In this document: positions 44,133-54,626 of the stretch, piece after piece
Layout: each line of letters starts with the position of its first letter
Position numbering within the stretch: the first letter of the stretch is position 1
From: Escherichia phage EcS1
Sequence record: NC_055721.1
DNA length: 64,000 nt
Strand: one strand, 5' to 3'
Made by a program: the position numbers and the translations under genes
Notes under the pieces: model-generated
Told to the model about the DNA's origin: nothing
The model's database searches: none
The model's input: only the letters and a program-made list of their open reading frames with translations

Positions 44133-47100
44133 ATGGCCGATATTTTAAAACCTGCTTTCCGTGCCACATCCGGCCTTGATGCAGGTGGCGATAAAGTTAT
44201 CAACGTTGCGAAAGCTGATTTCGACGTTTTAAGTGATGGTGTTAACGTTGATTTCTTCATTGAAGAAAACACCATCCAAGAATATATTGAAACACGTGCA
44301 TACCGTCAAAACTTTGCTGTTATGTTTGATGGACGTATCTGGACTGCTAAAGCTGATATTGCTTCACCTTCAGGGCCATTCCAAGAAGCACGTTGGACTG
44401 CATTACGTACTGACCCAAAATGGAAATATGTTACTTCAGGGGCGAACAATGCTCTTAATTCAGGCGATACCATTTCTGTTACTACTGAATTAGGCGATGT
44501 TGGATTCATTTTACCAAATGATCCACAAGATGGCGACACCATTGTAATTAAAGATGTCGGTGCGAAGGTTGGTTACAATTCACTTAAAGTAAAAGTATCA
44601 AACCAACAGATCGTTAATTTAGGTAACAAAGTAAATGAACTTCTGATTACCAAACCACGTTCAGAAAACGTGTTTATTTTTAGTAATCGTTTATGGTATT
44701 TTTATGCTGCTGAAGAAAGTATTCATGCAACTCAAATCACTGTAGCAAATAACGAATATCGTGCATCGGCTAGTGAACGTATCTTCCGTACTCACTCAGC
44801 GCCAGGTGCAATCATTGTTGTTCTGCCTAAATACGCAAACAATGGTGATATCATTTATTTCACTGACCTTGATGGGTTAGCTCCGTTACAACATTTAATT
44901 GTTAAGACATTTGATAACACTTCAAGTATTGGTAAAGCTGGACAATATCAGATTGAATCACGTACTTCGGCCGATGGCTTAGTTATCTACGATGCATCTA
45001 CTAAAGTATGGAAGATTTGGGACGGCGATATCAGACAACGTCTTCGTATTATTCGTGATGACGTAAATCTGTTAGCCAATGAAAGTGTCATGGTTTTTGG
45101 TGTTAATAACTCAGTTCAAAAAACAATTAACATTAAATTACCTGCTGGCGTTGCGATCGGTGATAAAGAACGTATCGCAATGAACTATATGCGTAAAGGT
45201 CAGAAAGTAATTATTACCGCTGCAACTGGCGATAAAATTGCTACTTCTAAAACTTTGCTTCAGTTCCCTAAACGTTCTCAGTATCCACCTGATGTTGAAT
45301 GGGTTAAAGTCGATTCATTAGAATTTGATGGTACCATTGATTATGTTCCTATTATGGAATTATCTTATGTGGAAGATGGTGCTGAAAAGTATTGGGTTGT
45401 TTCTACTAATGATCCGACAGTAGAACGTGTTGATGCAACTAGTGATGCTAATAGACAACGTTTAGGTGTTATTGCTCTGGCAAGCCAGGCGCAAGCTAAT
45501 GCGAACCATGAACAGACTCCTGAAAAAGAATTAGCTATTACTCCAGAGACTTTAGCTAACAGAACAGCTACTGAAACTCGTCGTGGTATAGCACGTGTAG
45601 CAACAACAGCTGAAGTTAATAAATTAACGACTGACACTTATGCTGATGATACTATTATTACACCTAGAAAGTTAAATGAACGTTCAGCTACTGAAACTCG
45701 TCGTGGACTTGCTGAAATTGCAACTCAGCCTGAAACTAATGCCGGAACAGATGATACAGTCATTATAACGCCGAAAAAACTAGAAGCACGTCGTGCAACT
45801 GAAACTATGGCTGGTATTGCGCCTTTAGTTGTTTCAGGTGGTATTCCAGGTATTGACCGTGATACTGTAGGAACTGGCATTTACGAACGTACTGAACATA
45901 CTCGTCAAGTAACGCCTAAGACCTTGTTTGAAAATAAGGCTACTCAGACGGCGCAAGGTGGTGTTTGGATGGCAACTGGCAATGAAACTATTGCTGGGGT
46001 AGTTGATACTCCTGCGATGCCTCTAGCTGTGTCTCCTGAACAACTACATAAAAAGACTGCTACTGAAACTCGTATTGGTTTTACCGAAATTGCTACACAA
46101 CCGGAAACTGATGCTGGGACTGATGACTTCAGATTCATTACGCCTAAGAAATTAAATAACCGTAATGCTACCGAAACTTTGACAGGTATATCGCGTGTCG
46201 CGACACAAGTGGAATTTGATGCTGGTACTTTAGATAATGTTATTTCAACTCCGTTGAAAATTAAAACTAGATTTAATGATACCGCTCGTACTTCTGTTAT
46301 CCCAGCCAGTGGTTTAACTGAATCAGGAACTCTCTGGAACCATTATACACTGGATATTCGAGAAGCATCTGAAACACAACGTGGTACAGCTCGTTTAGCG
46401 ACTCAACTTGAAGTAAATACTGGTACAGATGATAAAACAATTGTTACTCCTTTAAAACTTCATAGCAAAAAAGCTACTGAATCTTCTGAAGGTATTATCC
46501 AAGTAGCAACTCAGGCTGAAACAGTTACAGGCACATCTCCAACTAAAGCAATATCGCCTAAGAACTTCAAATATGTTGTTCAACAAGAAACGACTTGGGA
46601 AGCAAGTCCAACCACTCGTGGTTTTGTTAAGATTTCTGAAAATGCTATTACTTGGGTAGGTAATAATACAGCTGGGTCTACTAAACCATTAGACCAATAT
46701 GTGAAATCTGGGTATGCTATTTCTCCATATGAGTTGAATAAAACTCTGGCTAATTATTTGCCATTAATGGCTCAAGCTGAAGATTCACGTAATTTAGATG
46801 GACTTGATTCACTTCAATTCATCCGTCGTGATATCGACCAAACTGTGAATGGCAAATTAACTCTGACCAAAGAGTTAGTGACTTCTGCTGCTATTACTTC
46901 AACTGCCGCTGCAACATTTGATTCAGTATTAAGTATCAAAACAGTGACAATTGGTAATAATACAGGTAATGCTATTTTCAATATGGCTGGGACCACGAAC
47001 CCATGGGCTATTTCTGCATTATCATCTAAAGATACTATTGAATTCAAGTCTGGTACTTCAGCTAATGCTTTAGTATTGAATAAGAATGGTGATACAACAA

Positions 47101-47909
47101 TTGCTGGACAAATTACTGCACCGAATATCAATATAACTTCAGCATATAAAATGAATGGTGTTAACATCATTGCTGCTGAAACAATTGGTTCAACTCCAGT
47201 AGTTGCAATTGGTTCGACTACCCAAAAGATGGCTGTTAAAAGTGTTGATGCTGCTAATATCGATGTATACGATAAAGACTCACCATCTGCGCCGTATAAG
47301 ATATTAACATCTAAAAATGCTGTGGATATTGTAGGTCAAAACTTCGTTAAGAAGATTGGCGATACAATGTCTGGACGTTTAACTATTAATGCCGCGATGT
47401 CTGTTATCATGGACCAAGACAAAGCTATGGGTGCATTGACTGCCGAAACAATAGGTACTTGGTCAACCGAAATAACTAAACAAGCATTGTATAACACTTT
47501 GCCTGGTTATGTCGTTCCAGTATTTGTTAAAGATGACCAAGGACAAAGCACTCCTATTGTAGAAAGTTATACCGAAGTTAAGTCAATCGGTACAATGTCT
47601 CAATTTGGTGTATCGTCAGCTTACACGTATCGTATTTGGACTCCTCGTCCTCAAACGGTTCAAGCTAACCATAGTCCAGTTTCAATGTATACTCAGATTT
47701 GGGATTCAGCTCGTAACGTATGGGGTCAATGGTCTCGTATGTTCACCTCTGAAGCGCCTCCAACGGCTGCTGACATTGGTGCTGTTTCTACTGCTGGTTC
47801 TGCATTCGATAACCTGACAATACATAAGTGGCTTCAGATTGGCAATGTTCGTATTGAGCCAGATGATGTTACTCGTACAGTTAAATTCACTTGGATTGAT
47901 ACTCCATAA
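44133..47909 (+). CDS. 34: Long tail fibre proximal subunit gp34
   Basis: 1258 aa; N-terminus (RATSGLDAGGDKVINVAKAD) and repeated RxATETxxG(I/V)A motifs match T4 gp34. Confidence 0.9.
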   Translation: MADILKPAFRATSGLDAGGDKVINVAKADFDVLSDGVNVDFFIEENTIQEYIETRAYRQNFAVMFDGRIWTAKADIASPSGPFQEARWTALRTDPKWKYVTSGANNALNSGDTISVTTELGDVGFILPNDPQDGDTIVIKDVGAKVGYNSLKVKVSNQQIVNLGNKVNELLITKPRSENVFIFSNRLWYFYAAEESIHATQITVANNEYRASASERIFRTHSAPGAIIVVLPKYANNGDIIYFTDLDGLAPLQHLIVKTFDNTSSIGKAGQYQIESRTSADGLVIYDASTKVWKIWDGDIRQRLRIIRDDVNLLANESVMVFGVNNSVQKTINIKLPAGVAIGDKERIAMNYMRKGQKVIITAATGDKIATSKTLLQFPKRSQYPPDVEWVKVDSLEFDGTIDYVPIMELSYVEDGAEKYWVVSTNDPTVERVDATSDANRQRLGVIALASQAQANANHEQTPEKELAITPETLANRTATETRRGIARVATTAEVNKLTTDTYADDTIITPRKLNERSATETRRGLAEIATQPETNAGTDDTVIITPKKLEARRATETMAGIAPLVVSGGIPGIDRDTVGTGIYERTEHTRQVTPKTLFENKATQTAQGGVWMATGNETIAGVVDTPAMPLAVSPEQLHKKTATETRIGFTEIATQPETDAGTDDFRFITPKKLNNRNATETLTGISRVATQVEFDAGTLDNVISTPLKIKTRFNDTARTSVIPASGLTESGTLWNHYTLDIREASETQRGTARLATQLEVNTGTDDKTIVTPLKLHSKKATESSEGIIQVATQAETVTGTSPTKAISPKNFKYVVQQETTWEASPTTRGFVKISENAITWVGNNTAGSTKPLDQYVKSGYAISPYELNKTLANYLPLMAQAEDSRNLDGLDSLQFIRRDIDQTVNGKLTLTKELVTSAAITSTAAATFDSVLSIKTVTIGNNTGNAIFNMAGTTNPWAISALSSKDTIEFKSGTSANALVLNKNGDTTIAGQITAPNINITSAYKMNGVNIIAAETIGSTPVVAIGSTTQKMAVKSVDAANIDVYDKDSPSAPYKILTSKNAVDIVGQNFVKKIGDTMSGRLTINAAMSVIMDQDKAMGALTAETIGTWSTEITKQALYNTLPGYVVPVFVKDDQGQSTPIVESYTEVKSIGTMSQFGVSSAYTYRIWTPRPQTVQANHSPVSMYTQIWDSARNVWGQWSRMFTSEAPPTAADIGAVSTAGSAFDNLTIHKWLQIGNVRIEPDDVTRTVKFTWIDTP

Positions 47910-47917
47910 GAGGTATT

Positions 47918-49066
47918 ATGTCTAATATTATGGCTGGTTTCGGTAATGGATTTGTCGAAACCCAAATCATATCAGAAAATAATGCTGTAAGATATAAACT
48001 GTCAATAGCGGCCGGACTTAAAAAGTCCGTGCCTGCTATAGGTTATGTTTTATTGCAAGATAAACCGTTAGGCCCGCAAGAGAGTCCTCCTGGATTAACC
48101 GTTAGAGAATTTAATGTTGCAACAAATACAATTGCATCATCTAAATTATTTGAATTTAAAAATGGTGAAGCAGGCGGAGCTTCTCAAGCATTTGTGGATT
48201 ATATTACGGCCTTATCTTCTAAACCTAATGTAATTGTTATTCTTACATCAGGTGATAGATTATATTCTAATGCGGCAATTGATACATGGTTTTTAAATGC
48301 ATCAGCAACAAGTTGGCCAGGCACATGGAGGTGTTCTAAATTCCCATGCTCTTACGTTGCTTTTTATTCTCCACTTTATAAAAAGATAGTTCAAGAACAT
48401 GCTACTTATAGCGATGATATTTTAAGACAGGAAGATGTCAGAGCTCAATTAGAAATTGTTTATGATAAGTTCAATGATATAGGCGCTACTGGATTTTCTA
48501 AACGTTCTATAGAAGACCCTACTGAATATTCAAGTAGCACTGAGTTTGACTTTGTACGATATCCTATCGGTGCGCCTATTATCGCACCAATGGCTGACTA
48601 TTCATTGAGAGCTGGTTCAAAGGTAAAGGTATCGTTTGAATTATATGCTTCAGCCGATTTATTAGCTACAGGTCAAACAGTCCGTATTAGTTTTCGTTGG
48701 TTTAAAGATACCGCTATTCTTACGTCTCAGACGAATGAGGTGGCACTCGGACAAGCCGATAGATGGATAAAGTACGAACGGGTTCTAGATGTCCCTGCCA
48801 CCGCTGACGGCTTCACAATCATTGTTTCTAGATATCCTCGACAACCTGAACCTGGGCTTGGAGCTATCAAGAATTTAATTATGACAGAAGTCTCAAGACA
48901 AGATGAAGCATTAACTCGTCCTGCTGAATTTGGTGTCAATGGTATAAGAATGAACAAAGCTATAGATGGAACTGTGTCTGAATTGTTGATTCTTGCTGAT
49001 ACTAGCGATGATCCGTCAGGACAAGTTGAATCAGTTGAGTTCAGAGAACTTAAGAAAGATGTATAA
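47918..49066 (+). CDS. 35: Long tail fibre hinge protein gp35
   Basis: 382 aa; synteny 34-35-36-37. Confidence 0.7.
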   Translation: MSNIMAGFGNGFVETQIISENNAVRYKLSIAAGLKKSVPAIGYVLLQDKPLGPQESPPGLTVREFNVATNTIASSKLFEFKNGEAGGASQAFVDYITALSSKPNVIVILTSGDRLYSNAAIDTWFLNASATSWPGTWRCSKFPCSYVAFYSPLYKKIVQEHATYSDDILRQEDVRAQLEIVYDKFNDIGATGFSKRSIEDPTEYSSSTEFDFVRYPIGAPIIAPMADYSLRAGSKVKVSFELYASADLLATGQTVRISFRWFKDTAILTSQTNEVALGQADRWIKYERVLDVPATADGFTIIVSRYPRQPEPGLGAIKNLIMTEVSRQDEALTRPAEFGVNGIRMNKAIDGTVSELLILADTSDDPSGQVESVEFRELKKDV

Positions 49067-49127: not shown

Positions 49128-49775
49128 ATGGCCGATTTAAAAGCTAGTTCTACAGTTGGAGGAGCCGTTATTTGGCACCAAGGAAACTTCCCGTTGTTCC
49201 CAACTGGTGACTCTCTTCTCTACAAAACATATAAAGTTTATTCTGAAAAGGATAAGCCGCAAGCAGTAGATAATGACTTTGTTTCAAAAGCAAACGGAGG
49301 CGATTATCTTAAAAGTGTTAACTACACTGAAGGTTTAACATTAAATGATTCTGCTGGGTATAAAGTTAAATTTGGCAAGCCTATTTCTACAGACCCAAAT
49401 ATAATCTATACAGCTTCACTTCAAATCCAATCTCCATTTGGGTTAGAAACCGCGGCTGGGCAGCCATTCATTATATTTGACCCAACAACTGAACCGACTA
49501 CACCTCGTTTAACTGTAATGGGTAAAGTAATTGCTGGGCAATTGTGGGATACTAATACACGTGTATACTCACCTATAAACCCGCCAAAACCAGTTGATGT
49601 TGGATTAGGCAATGTAACTAATGATGCTCAAGTTAAAAAAGCTGGTGATACAATGACAGGTCTTTTAACTGCACCCAATTTTATTTCATCAAATATTGCA
49701 TCTCGTTCTGATCATGTGCCTCAATATGGACAAGTAATTGCTAAAAACACTGAAATAGATTTTGGCACTTATTGA
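49128..49775 (+). CDS. 36: Long tail fibre distal subunit gp36
   Basis: 215 aa (T4 gp36 221); synteny. Confidence 0.7.
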   Translation: MADLKASSTVGGAVIWHQGNFPLFPTGDSLLYKTYKVYSEKDKPQAVDNDFVSKANGGDYLKSVNYTEGLTLNDSAGYKVKFGKPISTDPNIIYTASLQIQSPFGLETAAGQPFIIFDPTTEPTTPRLTVMGKVIAGQLWDTNTRVYSPINPPKPVDVGLGNVTNDAQVKKAGDTMTGLLTAPNFISSNIASRSDHVPQYGQVIAKNTEIDFGTY

Positions 49776-49807: not shown

Positions 49808-52741
49808 ATGGCCGATTTATCAAGAATTAAATTTAAACGCTCTTCTGTCGCAGGTAAACGTCCATTACCTGCCGATATCGCTGAAGGCGAATTAGCGATT
49901 AACTTAAAAGATCGTATGATCTTTACAAAAGATGACCAGAATATGATTGTCGATTTAGGCTTTGCTAAAGGCGGCAATGTTGATGGCAATATTAACCAAG
50001 TTTCTGGTAACTTTAAAACAGCAGGTAATGTTGAAGGTAAAAACTTTGATATCACAGATACTGCTAAATTTAATAATTCGACAAAAACAAAATATCTTAC
50101 TATTGGAACAGAAAGTGAACCTGTTTTAAATGGTGTATATCGTTATTGGGGTTCAGCTACCCGTGGTTCTGTCCATGAATTTGGCTTCGCTGATTCCACA
50201 TATGGTATGTATGTTCAGAAGTCTCCTACAGGTGATGTAGATGCTGCTATAAATGGTAAACTTAATGTTGCAAGTACTATAACAGGTAAATGGGACCTTA
50301 AATTAGAAGGTCCAACACAACATGTAGTTCATACCAACTGGGGCGACATGACATCTAGATCGATGTTTATTGATGCTCGTGGTACAGTTGCTGATAATGT
50401 GAATTATTCATTTTCTACAGGAACTTCTGCAGGTGCCTCTAAGAATGTTATTCTTACAATGCGTGAAGTTAAAACAACTGGTGCCTTGAGAACACAAATC
50501 AATGGTCAAACATACATCAATGGTAATGGTACCCAAGATTTTAACCCATTAATTTTTGTGGGACCAAATAATAAATCAATCATTAACCGAATTGCCGACG
50601 GTAAATATTATATGTTGGCTGGCGAAGGTGATGCCTTCGGTGCAGACCGCCCATTTGTTTACGATTATGCGACTGGTTTAGTTTCAAGTGGAACTAATTT
50701 CTCTATTAATAAAACAGGGACTAGAATAACAGTTGGGACCATTGATACAACTGCCATAGGAACTGGTATTTCAATAGGTGACGGCGGTACAGGTATCACA
50801 TATAATGGCACCGGTAATATGGCATTAATGTCTGCTGGTAATGAATTTTTAAATATTGGTTTCAGTAATAGAATAACATCATTACGCCAATTCCGTTTAG
50901 TCGTTCCTTTAGATAATATCCCTACAAATAATTCTATTTTAACTGTTGATACTTCTCTTGATGGTAATGCTAATCAAGGTGATGGTATGACTCATATCGG
51001 ATATCTTGATGTAGACAAAAAGTTTAGTCATTTTTTCAGAGGAACTGGTACAACATATGTTAGTTCTGATGGTGGTCTTTATGTCCAGAAATTAACTACA
51101 TTAGCAGGTGCATTAAATGTTTCAGGCATAACTAATATTGGTGTTGCAGGAAATGCAAATTTAAACATTGGTGATAATGATACTGGATTCACTTCAGGTG
51201 GCGATGGTATCTTGAATTTAAGAGCCAATAGTGTGAATACAATGCAATTCCAGTATAATGTTATTACAGCTCACCAACAATTTAGACTTAATCAAGGTAG
51301 CGAAACTTCATATAAAGCTTATGGAGTTTACGATTCTACAAGTTTAGCCCAGTGGGCTGCTACTCCTGAAACAGCTAATGGTGTAAACCATTTACGTAAA
51401 ATGCGTGGACATAGTGCAGCAACTATTTTCCATGAAATTGCTGCTGGTAATGAAATATCTTGGTGGCATGGTAATGGACCTGAAAATAAAATATTTTCAT
51501 TTAATGGTGCTAATGGCGGTACTCTTTATGTGGGTGGAGAAAGTAGCTTTTCTCAATATCGTGCTGATGGTAATATCTTAGGTCCTACTTGGACCAATGG
51601 AAATCTGAAAGTTCATATTGATACCTTTGTGCCTAAATCTGGCGCTATAATGATCGGGGACTTAGCTTCTCCTTCATTTATTTCTATGAATGGTTCTTTA
51701 ATTACTAAAGGAGCTAATACTGCTAGTAATTGTCATGTTTGGTTCCAAAATTCAGATGGTACTGAACGCGGTGTTCTTTGGGGATCCCCTGATGGCATGA
51801 TGAATCTTAGAGCTAACAATGTAAGCCAGACCACATGGAAAATTGGTGCTGGCATGATTCTGATGCAAGATACTGTTACCGGTTCTGAACGTGCTTTGAT
51901 TCGTGGTACTGTTGATGGTGGTGGTCATGTAGATTGGAGAAACCGCTCTTCAGGACTTCAATTAGATTGCCCTAATTCAGATACATCAGCATATAACGTT
52001 TGGAAAGCTACTAAATGGGGTGCAAACCATTTAGCCGCAATGGATGTTCATGCAGCTAATGGTGACATGAATGGTGTTACTACTCGTTTAATAAATGGTA
52101 ATCATGTATTCACTTTTGGTGGACCTTCATTTACAGCCCCAGGAACTATATCAGCACCTAATGTTACTTCAACAGGCAGCCTTTATGCAGCTGATCATGT
52201 TTACGCAGGCAACACATCATCTTATCTTCGTAATGATGGCATGATTGCTGGTCCTGTATGGGGTGGGCAGATAGATAATTGGATTTCTAGTAACTTTGCT
52301 CGTAAAAACCAGGCAGAAACATTCCAAGGTAATGTAAACGTAAATGGTGACTTGAACCAGGCTTCAGATTCGTTCTCATTATATTGTCGTGACCTTTATG
52401 TACGTTCTGATATAAGAGTTAAAAAAGACCTGAAACGTTTTATCAAACCTTCTGAAACCTTATCTAAACTTGGTGGATACTTGTATCTCCAGAAGAAAGG
52501 ACAAAATGAAGATGGTTCTGATAAATATATCCAGTCAGCTGGTTTAATTGCTCAGGAAGTTCAAGACGTATTACCTGAATTAATTTCAGTAGATGATACA
52601 GATGAAGCTCTTCTTCGTTTGAACTATAATGGTATCATTGCTTTAAATACAGCAACCATTAATGAACATACTGAAACAATAGCTACTCTGACAGCATTAG
52701 TTGAAAAACTAACAGCTCGTTTAGAAAAATTGGAAAAATAA
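49808..52741 (+). CDS. 37: Long tail fibre distal subunit gp37 with C-terminal intramolecular chaperone (peptidase S74-like) domain
   Basis: N-terminus matches T4 gp37 (KRS.AG.RP....AEGELAINLKDR.IFTKDD...I.DLGFAKGG); C-terminal ~111 aa begin with SDIRVKKD autoprocessing-like motif. Confidence 0.85.
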   Translation: MADLSRIKFKRSSVAGKRPLPADIAEGELAINLKDRMIFTKDDQNMIVDLGFAKGGNVDGNINQVSGNFKTAGNVEGKNFDITDTAKFNNSTKTKYLTIGTESEPVLNGVYRYWGSATRGSVHEFGFADSTYGMYVQKSPTGDVDAAINGKLNVASTITGKWDLKLEGPTQHVVHTNWGDMTSRSMFIDARGTVADNVNYSFSTGTSAGASKNVILTMREVKTTGALRTQINGQTYINGNGTQDFNPLIFVGPNNKSIINRIADGKYYMLAGEGDAFGADRPFVYDYATGLVSSGTNFSINKTGTRITVGTIDTTAIGTGISIGDGGTGITYNGTGNMALMSAGNEFLNIGFSNRITSLRQFRLVVPLDNIPTNNSILTVDTSLDGNANQGDGMTHIGYLDVDKKFSHFFRGTGTTYVSSDGGLYVQKLTTLAGALNVSGITNIGVAGNANLNIGDNDTGFTSGGDGILNLRANSVNTMQFQYNVITAHQQFRLNQGSETSYKAYGVYDSTSLAQWAATPETANGVNHLRKMRGHSAATIFHEIAAGNEISWWHGNGPENKIFSFNGANGGTLYVGGESSFSQYRADGNILGPTWTNGNLKVHIDTFVPKSGAIMIGDLASPSFISMNGSLITKGANTASNCHVWFQNSDGTERGVLWGSPDGMMNLRANNVSQTTWKIGAGMILMQDTVTGSERALIRGTVDGGGHVDWRNRSSGLQLDCPNSDTSAYNVWKATKWGANHLAAMDVHAANGDMNGVTTRLINGNHVFTFGGPSFTAPGTISAPNVTSTGSLYAADHVYAGNTSSYLRNDGMIAGPVWGGQIDNWISSNFARKNQAETFQGNVNVNGDLNQASDSFSLYCRDLYVRSDIRVKKDLKRFIKPSETLSKLGGYLYLQKKGQNEDGSDKYIQSAGLIAQEVQDVLPELISVDDTDEALLRLNYNGIIALNTATINEHTETIATLTALVEKLTARLEKLEK

Positions 52742-52746
52742 GAGAA

Positions 52747-52760
52747 GGGGCTTCGGCCCC
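52747..52760 (+). promoter_or_regulatory. UUCG-tetraloop hairpin (GGGGC-UUCG-GCCCC) between gene 37 and first gp38-like gene
   Basis: Plus GGGGCTTCGGCCCC. Confidence 0.55.
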
Positions 52761-52772
52761 TTAAGGATTAAT

Positions 52773-53273
52773 ATGGCAGTAACAGGTCCTTGGATAGGTA
52801 GTTCAGCCGTAGCTGAAACAGGCCAAAGATGGTTAATTAATGCAGCAACAGCATTAAGATTAGGAACTCCGTTTTGGGCTTCTTCATTATCTGGAAGATC
52901 ACGATCATTCTTTATAACAGTAGGTCAATATACAGCTTATGCTATATTAGCTGGTGAACCTGATTATAGAGGTGCCGGTGGTGTCATGTATAATAACAAA
53001 AACACTAGCCTACAAAATAGCCCTTTTGGTGCTCTTGATGCAAATGGTATATGGGGTGGTGCGACTCGAATAGAAGTAGTAAGAAGTAGAGTTTCAACGT
53101 TTGGACAAATCATTGGTAATCTTGAACAAAGAAATCTCATTTTAAATATAGGCGGAACTAATTTTCAATTCAATTATACAAATGGGTATTGGGAATGTAC
53201 AGACCCTAATGGATTATATGATTTTTTAGGAGCAAGAATTGGTTGGCGATTAGAATGTATTCCTCAAAACTAA
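52773..53273 (+). CDS. 38: gp38-like tail fibre adhesin (T2-type), paralog A
   Basis: N-terminus MAVTGPWIGSSAVAETGQRW resembles the conserved gp37-attachment N-terminus of T2-type gp38 as recalled; immediately downstream of 37. Confidence 0.6.
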   Translation: MAVTGPWIGSSAVAETGQRWLINAATALRLGTPFWASSLSGRSRSFFITVGQYTAYAILAGEPDYRGAGGVMYNNKNTSLQNSPFGALDANGIWGGATRIEVVRSRVSTFGQIIGNLEQRNLILNIGGTNFQFNYTNGYWECTDPNGLYDFLGARIGWRLECIPQN

Positions 53274-53415
53274 GTTATTAATTTATCCTTTTAATAAATA
53301 AACCTATACCACATTTTGGGTTTCATCAAAATGGGACAATTTTTTATTTATTACGCCGCGCGCAACGATGCTCACACATCGCCGCTACCGTGGCCTTTTA
53401 AAAGAGGCTAAATCA

Positions 53416-53934
53416 ATGGCAATTGCAGGTCCGTGGATAGGAAGCTCTGGTGTCGCAGAGACTGGTAAAAGATGGATGCAAGAAATTGGTGCTGCAGTAA
53501 GAATGCCGGCTCCATTCTGGGCATCTAATTTAGGTGGTAGAAGTGTTTATAATATATCATTTGGTGTCTATGAACGTATGTATAATAATGTGCGTTATAG
53601 AGGTCAATGGGGCGTTGGTTGGAGTTATCCTTTTTCTAAACCTTCTGGGTATGGTAATGTCGGGGGTAGTTTTGAAGGTAATGCATTTGGGACACTTGTT
53701 GCAATAGGCTCATCACTAGCTGATAACAGGGGTGGTAACGTATTATCTATCCAAAATGGGCCTGTAACTAATTTAACCCTTACTACAGATGACGGCGCTG
53801 TGTTTTATTTTAATAACACAGAGCGTTTTGATAGTGGTTATCGACAATATGATTGTACTGACAGGGCTGCATTATATAATTATCTAAATGCTCGTGTAGG
53901 ACAAACCCGACAAGGATTAGTTACTAGACGATAA
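53416..53934 (+). CDS. gp38-like tail fibre adhesin, paralog B
   Basis: Start at MAIAGPWIGSSGVAETGKRW with AAGAGG RBS; shares N-terminal ~45 aa and C-terminal CTD...LY.(F/Y)L.AR(I/V)G with paralog A; central region divergent. Confidence 0.55.
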   Translation: MAIAGPWIGSSGVAETGKRWMQEIGAAVRMPAPFWASNLGGRSVYNISFGVYERMYNNVRYRGQWGVGWSYPFSKPSGYGNVGGSFEGNAFGTLVAIGSSLADNRGGNVLSIQNGPVTNLTLTTDDGAVFYFNNTERFDSGYRQYDCTDRAALYNYLNARVGQTRQGLVTRR

Positions 53935-53966
53935 GCATAAATACCTCAGTAAAAAGAGGAATTTAT

Positions 53967-54626
53967 ATGGCCACTCCAAGAACACCAATCCCAATAGCAG
54001 ATATTCTATTTGGTGTTCTGGACAGACTCTTCAAAGACAACGCCACAGGACGAGTTCTAGCTTCTAGAGTTCTAACTGTGATTATCTTATTCATTTTATG
54101 CCTAATTTGGTACAGAGGCGATGCGTTCATGCAGACTTATAAAGAGTCTCGTTATGATACGTATTCTGAAGTACTTCAAAAGGATCGTGATGTTAAATTT
54201 GAGACTTCTGCTCTAGAACAACTTCAAATAGTGCATGTATCAAGCGGTGCTGATTTTTCAGCGATATATTCATTTAGACCTAAAAATTTAAATTACTTTG
54301 TGGATTTAATAGCGTACGAAGGGAGACTTCCATCTACAGTTAATGAAAAAAACTTAGGTGGATATCCAGTAGATAAGACTTCAGGGGAGTATTCAGCTCA
54401 TTTGAATGGTGCGTATTTTACATCATCAATAGAGTATGTTTTCTTGCCAACGAAGAAGAAAAATGAAGAATTAAAATATATGTTTTCTTGCCCATATTTT
54501 AATTTAGATAACGTTTATTCAGGAACTGTTTCAATGTACTGGTATTCTGGTAAACCACACATCGTTGATTCAAGATTAAACGCTATCTGTCAACAGGCTG
54601 CTCGTACTTTAGGCAGAGCTAGATAA
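53967..54626 (+). CDS. t: Holin T
   Basis: 219 aa; near-colinear with T4 holin T as recalled (DILFGVLDRLFKDNATG.VLASRV, LEQLQIVH.SS.ADFSA.YSFRPKNLNYFVD.IAYEG.LPST, CPYFNLDN.Y.GT..MYWY). Confidence 0.9.
   Translation: MATPRTPIPIADILFGVLDRLFKDNATGRVLASRVLTVIILFILCLIWYRGDAFMQTYKESRYDTYSEVLQKDRDVKFETSALEQLQIVHVSSGADFSAIYSFRPKNLNYFVDLIAYEGRLPSTVNEKNLGGYPVDKTSGEYSAHLNGAYFTSSIEYVFLPTKKKNEELKYMFSCPYFNLDNVYSGTVSMYWYSGKPHIVDSRLNAICQQAARTLGRAR

Follow-up and report, generated by a model that had tools for sequence, protein, structure and literature searches.

The question raised by the 3' end of gene 37 in Escherichia phage EcS1 (Kagamiyamavirus ecs1) is how the tip of the long tail fibre is completed, and which protein is left at that tip to bind the receptor. 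The window analysed here is a stretch of 64,000 nucleotides of the EcS1 genome (NC_055721.1), and all features described below lie on its plus strand. Gene 37 (49808-52741) encodes the long tail fibre distal subunit precursor, gp37 (977 amino acids, 104.9 kDa), an open reading frame whose translation is exactly identical to the EcS1 protein YP_010090965.1 and which matches PHROG 35830/1699 'long tail fiber protein distal subunit' (E 5e-159 and 4e-145). The original prediction for this locus was that its last segment, 52406-52741, encodes a self-cleaving chaperone domain with a helical tail, that the mature fibre ends near residue 866 in the manner of T2 gp37, and that the exposed tip is capped by the product of an adhesin-type gp38 gene. 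The analysis makes it highly likely that this intramolecular chaperone domain (IMC) folds the gp37 fibre, cleaves itself off and leaves a tip for the docking of a gp38 adhesin, as in phages T2 and S16.

The interval 52406-52741 corresponds exactly to codons 867-977 of gp37 followed by its stop codon, beginning with TCT (Ser867, 52406-52408) and closing with TAA (52739-52741), and the strings SDIRVKKD, LSKLGGYLY, AQEVQDVLPEL and LTALVEKLTARLEKLEK on which the prediction was built are all present in the gp37 translation. The domain itself (52406-52738; 12.4 kDa) therefore makes up the final 111 residues of the 977 and forms the very C-terminal end of the distal subunit. The family search that the prediction had proposed as a check placed it in Pfam PF13884, Peptidase_S74 ('chaperone of endosialidase'), with 39.5 bits (E 7e-10) for the 111-residue tail and 35.1 bits for the whole of gp37, both above the curated gathering score of 22. 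Model positions 1-56 align on residues 867-925, the Pfam core of the domain (52406-52582), so that the first position of the model is Ser867. Among PDB entries the closest relative found by phmmer is S16 gp37 (the 6F45 construct, E 2.2e-35), and the two junctions align as CRDLYVR|SDIRVKKD in EcS1 and CRDLNVS|SDRRIKKD in S16. Over the domain EcS1 is 68% identical to Citrobacter phage Merlin, 53% to S16, about 30% to the Winklervirus phages and 27% to T2, and of the records in the phage collection searched, 980 gave a tblastn match to the IMC.

A profile of 10 phage IMCs, drawn from T-even relatives, T5-like L-shaped fibres, a Drexlerviridae lateral fibre, Pseudomonas phage PA5oct and a Vibrio phage, recovered from the PDB sequences 6F45_A (1.6e-38), the MyRF ICA 7DC3 (2.5e-9), the phage tail fibre 8JOV (4.9e-7) and the GA-1 neck-appendage IMC 3GUD (0.007). 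The K1F endosialidase 3GW6 was not reached by this profile against the PDB and was found, weakly, by fold search alone; the IMC of this endosialidase, endoNF, is longer (154 residues, motif SNGERK) and was misaligned by MAFFT. Ten residues (S1, D2, K6, G24, Y27, G46, A49, Q50, P57 and L80) are invariant in the 10 phage sequences, and EcS1 gp37 keeps all of them. The AlphaFold model of the domain, with a predicted local distance difference test score (pLDDT) of 93.8, combines a small alpha/beta body with a C-terminal helix of 37 residues, spanning residues 940-976 (52625-52735; DSSP helix 74-110 of the model, pLDDT about 96-98), which bears out the helical tail of the original prediction. This helix is expected to form a trimeric coiled coil by analogy with the T5 and K1F IMCs, where such a coiled coil lies at the centre (PMC4690869). 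Foldseek against the PDB placed the modelled fold nearest 7DC3 (E 2e-5, template modelling score 0.70), followed by 3GUD (E 0.03) and 3GW6 (probability 0.92-0.96). Since the Pfam match, the homology to S16 gp37, the 10-sequence profile and the AlphaFold/Foldseek result are four independent lines that agree, the domain is assigned to Peptidase_S74, and on every feature tested the last 111 residues of gp37 are an ordinary member of that family.

The Ser-Lys pair for self-cleavage is also in place. In the T5 tail fibre protein pb1 the chain is cut at Thr1263^Ser1264 (^ marks the bond), the serine hydroxyl being activated by a lysine five residues downstream, and replacement of Ser1264 by alanine abolishes the cut and leaves the uncleaved chaperone covering the receptor-binding tip (PMC4690869). 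In EcS1 the S-x4-K dyad is intact as SDIRVK, in the context DLYVR^SDIRVKK. The predicted nucleophile, Ser867, is homologous to T5 pb1 Ser1264, is position 1 of the Pfam model and is invariant in the 10 phage IMCs, while the predicted general base, Lys872 (52421-52423; Ser +5, the invariant K6), corresponds to Lys1269 of T5 pb1 and to K916 in the SNGERK motif of endoNF. S16 gp37 is reported to be cut between the serines of DLNVS^SDRRIKK (PMC7917993); its IMC has been cited as 113 residues long, and counted here from the S^S site it has 112. The scissile bond in EcS1 is predicted to be Arg866^Ser867 (52403-52408) because S16 and T5 are cut at the homologous bond, and the end at residue 866 that had been put forward for the mature protein thus agrees with both reported positions. 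Cleavage there would convert the 104.9-kDa precursor into a mature gp37 of 92.5 kDa (residues 1-866, 49808-52405, ending in ...YCRDLYVR) and the 12.4-kDa IMC. Arg861 and Asp862, both common to S16 and Merlin, sit together with Arg866 just upstream of Ser867; in T5 pb1 Arg1250 of the neighbouring chain and Asp1239 couple cleavage to folding, the neighbouring-chain arginine tying the cut to correct assembly of the trimer (PMC4690869).

The likeness to T2 drawn in the original prediction is also upheld by the T2 protein itself, in which the same motif reads NVYIR^SDIRLK and is followed by 99 residues. Proteolytic C-terminal cleavage of T2 and T6 gp37, followed by capping with gp38, is described in PMC3157838 and bioRxiv 10.64898/2026.05.12.724579. 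For S16, removal of the IMC is reported to expose the gp38 docking surface, on which gp38 docks by means of conserved tryptophans (PMC7917993). By analogy with these systems, three gp37 chains of EcS1 would join through the alpha/beta body and coiled-coil helix of the IMC, which would template the folding of the intertwined distal fibre. After correct folding of the tip, Ser867, activated by Lys872, would attack the Arg866-Ser867 bond in each chain, the 12.4-kDa IMC would be set free, and a gp38 protein docked on the exposed tip would then provide receptor binding.

Two genes that could supply such a protein follow gene 37, their starts lying 31 and 674 nucleotides past its stop codon. The first, gp38_1 (52773-53273), encodes 166 residues, comprising a Gp38_N domain (PF21721, residues 1-39) and a short C-terminal domain; the second, gp38_2 (53416-53934), encodes 172 residues and is exactly identical to EcS1 YP_010090967.1, 'tail fiber adhesin'. 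Gp38_N is matched with 78.8 bits in gp38_1 and with 74 bits in gp38_2 (cut-off 25), in the latter at residues 17-55 of the mechanically called open reading frame, which begins at ATG 53368, 16 codons upstream of ATG 53416. The downstream start is backed by the position of the Gp38_N match, by the Shine-Dalgarno sequence AAAGAGG and by the RefSeq protein, and the 53368-53415 extension, which overlaps a GC-rich repeat, is probably not translated. The tryptophans Trp7, Trp20 and Trp35 of Gp38_N are invariant, and both proteins fall in PHROG 1121 'tail fiber adhesin' (about 180 residues) and not in PHROG 2056, which holds the long polyglycine adhesins. The claim that these are adhesin-type genes stands in so far as both carry Gp38_N, but it holds for the first 45 or so residues only: the 61% identity of gp38_1 to S16 gp38 is confined to residues 1-46, and past residue ~46 neither protein showed similarity to S16 or T2 gp38.

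The fit between the gp37 tip and gp38 has been described as a lock and key (Trojet et al. 2011), and the two partners in EcS1 are of matching type. In EcS1, Merlin and S16 a tip of the form RDLxVx^SD is paired with a gp38 N-terminus MAxxGPW, whereas in X20, CBH8, PEi20, KLB31, T2 and leB a tip NVYIR^SD is paired with MAxVGVPGW. The EcS1 tip (RDLYVR^) and the N-termini of both its gp38 proteins are of the S16/Merlin type. The backbone of the phage is about 82% identical to that of Winklervirus phages of Serratia, Erwinia and Kosakonia, and EcS1 departs from these relatives in the tip and IMC and in both gp38 N-termini together. This joint switch is suggestive, being what a lock-and-key interaction predicts. 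A strict rule by which the type of the tip dictates the type of the gp38 N-terminus was considered and rejected, as PKO111 and Phynn break it; because these two phages deviate, the pairing is to be taken as supporting evidence and not as a statistical test.

Several observations weigh against the reading of gp37 as a self-cleaving fibre capped by gp38. The comparison of tips with gp38 N-termini covers 11 phages, a small and phylogenetically non-independent sample, and the pairing holds in nine of them, PKO111 and Phynn being the exceptions. The AlphaFold model of the IMC is that of a monomer and does not reproduce the trimeric catalytic geometry. The polyglycine receptor-binding domain of T2 and S16 gp38 is absent from both EcS1 proteins: neither contains a run of three or more glycines, and their glycine content is 13-15%, against 22-23% in the T2, S16 and Merlin proteins. 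The short C-terminal domain that stands in its place was modelled with a pLDDT of 61.6 (AlphaFold, 11-sequence alignment) and gave no Foldseek match in the PDB below E = 1.

These last features lend some weight to the alternative that the IMC is cleaved as proposed and the gp38-like proteins are assembly factors and not tip adhesins, receptor binding being left to mature gp37. Short, free of polyglycine motifs and with no C-terminal fold recognised, the proteins might be read in this way, and their homologues in CHI14, CBH8, PEi26 and leB do carry the GenBank label 'distal long tail fiber assembly catalyst'. However, that label is apparently inherited from the nomenclature of T4 gp38, and the RefSeq re-annotation is 'tail fiber adhesin'. 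The N-terminal 39-45 residues are an adhesin attachment domain and not of the T4 gp38/Tfa type, and they retain the docking tryptophans; a second chaperone would moreover be redundant, as the IMC already supplies the folding function. The C-terminal domains are also hypervariable and shuffled between genera, as expected of receptor-binding modules. An assembly role for these proteins is therefore improbable, although the adhesin role, which is suggested by the presence of Gp38_N, the name in the databases and the pattern of variability, is less secure than the original prediction implies.

It is more improbable still that the IMC is a relic or a non-cleaving variant, retained on the mature fibre and itself forming the tip. 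Sequence alone is unable to demonstrate cleavage activity, which leaves some room for this view, but the serine nucleophile, the lysine at +5 and all ten family-invariant residues are intact, and the closeness to S16 sets the domain beside one for which cleavage is reported (PMC7917993). A retained IMC would furthermore occupy the surface matched to both gp38 attachment domains, much as the uncleaved T5 chaperone masks its tip (PMC4690869). A T4-type tip, in which a receptor-binding gp37 needle is folded by gp38/Tfa and gp57A, was rejected, given that an IMC is present and the downstream genes carry Gp38_N.

Gene 37 belongs to a T4-type long-tail-fibre module with the order gp34-gp35-gp36-gp37-gp38-t, in which gp34 (44133-47909), gp35 (47918-49066) and gp36 (49128-49775) precede it and the holin gene t (53967-54626) follows the second gp38-like gene; in the EcS1 genome annotation gene 37 is named 'long tail fiber protein distal subunit' and both gp38-like genes are named 'tail fiber adhesin'. 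Compared with other phages gene 37 has a mosaic make-up. Three segments, among them one with the 5' end of gene 37, together cover about 16% of the gp37-gp38 locus and are 91% identical at the nucleotide level to the Yersinia phages TG1 and phiR1-RT, which are Tegunavirus members with a T4-type tip. The last ~130 residues of gp37, that is the tip and the IMC, are 74% identical to Merlin, and the last 137 residues are 51% identical to S16 gp37. Judged by their nearest relatives, the gp38 modules too are shuffled between lineages: the N-terminal domain of gp38_1 is closest to Merlin (73%) and S16 (64%), its C-terminal domain to the first gp38 of Kanagawavirus and Winklervirus (54-56%), and the C-terminal domain of gp38_2 to the one adhesin that Cronobacter phage leB encodes (64%).

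The short form of gp38 is common, with 122 phage records covering at least 80% of gp38_1, and tandem pairs also occur in Winklervirus and Kanagawavirus. In Hafnia phage Zyzzx, a member of the Ounavirinae that is FelixO1-like and not T4-like, a long polyglycine gp38 (255 amino acids) and a short one (160 amino acids) lie in tandem (locus L014, 3-1276), and their N-terminal attachment domains closely resemble each other; tandem adhesins are therefore not confined to one phage family. In the literature searched, nothing relevant was found on short or tandem gp38 proteins, those of Winklervirus included.

The noncoding DNA around these genes is itself structured. Between the stop codon of gene 37 and the ribosome-binding site of gp38_1, a stem-loop scan identified a GC-rich C(UUCG)G hairpin, GGGGC-UUCG-GCCCC (52745-52762), and 10 of 11 T-even-like phages compared have a corresponding tetraloop hairpin, built on another stem sequence, at this position. 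The 142-nucleotide spacer between the two gp38 genes (53274-53415) contains a late-promoter-like sequence, TAATAAATA, a hairpin at about 53309-53335 with one compensatory change, a GC-rich unit, CGCCGCGCGCAACGATGCTCACACAT, present in 1.2 copies in EcS1 and in 2.2 tandem copies in X20 and CBH8, and a long-range helix. The conservation of this spacer in Winklervirus and Kanagawavirus exceeds that of the adjoining coding DNA, and it alone, out of the gp38 region, gave a megablast match to Winklervirus (86% identity). Together with a few flanking bases (53270-53425) it folds with a minimum free energy of -41.5 kcal/mol (z = -5.0). The long-range helix predicted by RNAalifold has 17 base pairs and joins the 19 nucleotides that follow the gp38_1 stop codon to the Shine-Dalgarno sequence and AUG of gp38_2; all 17 pairs are invariant, so that RNAalifold found no covariation in it. 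A search of 52700-54000 against Rfam returned one match at chance level (SCARNA7, E 0.34), and in scans for sigma-70 promoters and terminators the counts did not exceed those of shuffled controls. In read-through mRNA the helix may hide the ribosome-binding site of gp38_2.

The presence of two adhesin candidates invites a further, distinctly tentative idea, namely that the two short paralogues compete for the single docking site on each gp37 trimer and so give mixed tip specificities on one virion. Their ratio could be set by the spacer, through an internal late promoter and the helix over the gp38_2 ribosome-binding site, and such a mixture might aid the polyvalence of EcS1. The phage is listed as polyvalent on E. 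coli, Shigella and Salmonella (PMC9041489), which is compatible with mixed tips and is not evidence for them.

The value of these results lies mainly in annotation, with the C-terminus of mature gp37 predicted at Arg866. For work on the host range of EcS1, including its engineering, the place to look would be the two gp38 genes and not gp37. The pairing of a gp37 IMC with gp38 is already published for T2, T6 and S16, the sequence of gp37 processing and gp38 capping is stated explicitly in bioRxiv 10.64898/2026.05.12.724579, and the EcS1 genes had already been annotated; nothing is added here to the mechanism established for the K1F endosialidase, T5 pb1, T2 and S16. The side observations, that is the short polyglycine-free gp38 paralogues and the structured spacer, are of more interest than the IMC itself. 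The leads they offer are short gp38 proteins that form a widespread class, their frequent occurrence as tandem paralogues with one docking domain in common, and a conserved RNA-structured spacer, none of which was found in the literature searched.

Set against known systems, EcS1 gp37 shares with the K1F endosialidase (3GW6), GA-1 (3GUD), T5 pb1 (4UW8) and the MyRF ICA (7DC3) an IMC that begins with the catalytic serine, has lysine at +5, continues as an alpha/beta body followed by a long helix (modelled in EcS1) and ends the polypeptide chain of a trimeric fibre or spike protein. The mature forms of the endosialidase and T5 pb1 carry the enzymatic or receptor-binding function themselves, whereas in EcS1 the tip is predicted to serve as a platform on which another protein docks; the 154-residue endoNF IMC, with its SNGERK motif, further differs in being matched by fold and not by sequence. 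Yersinia phage TG1, despite sharing the 5' end of gene 37, has the T4-type arrangement. The Winklervirus phages of Serratia (X20, CHI14 and CBH8) and the Kanagawavirus phages PEi20 and KLB31 have the same order of a gp37 with an IMC, two short polyglycine-free gp38 proteins and a holin, and resemble EcS1 in the C-terminal domain of gp38_1 (54-56% identical) and in the conserved spacer. They differ in their T2-type tip and IMC (about 30% identity over the IMC) and T2-type gp38 N-termini, and the C-terminal domain of EcS1 gp38_2 resembles that of leB (64%) and not theirs. T2 itself (Drexler et al. 1986; Riede et al. 1987; as cited in PMC3157838) likewise has SDIR[LV]K opening a tail of about 100 residues, and a gp38 gene directly downstream of gene 37 with holin t next to it. 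It belongs, however, to the other lock-and-key subtype, with an 'NVYIR' tip and a 'MAIVGVPGW' gp38 N-terminus, and its gp38 is a 262-residue protein with polyglycine motifs, its IMC being 27% identical to that of EcS1. The S16 gp37-gp38 pair (6F45; Dunne et al. 2018, as reported in PMC7917993) differs in having a gp37 of 749 residues against 977, with a largely unrelated shaft, and one gp38 gene instead of two, with a polyglycine (GRM/HVS) domain that the EcS1 proteins lack. It has in common with EcS1 an IMC of 111-112 residues in the context CRDLxVx^SDxRxKKD, a gp38 gene 27-31 nucleotides downstream of gene 37 behind a GC-rich hairpin, and a gp38 attachment domain of equal length that is 61% identical to that of EcS1 and has the same 'GPW' start.

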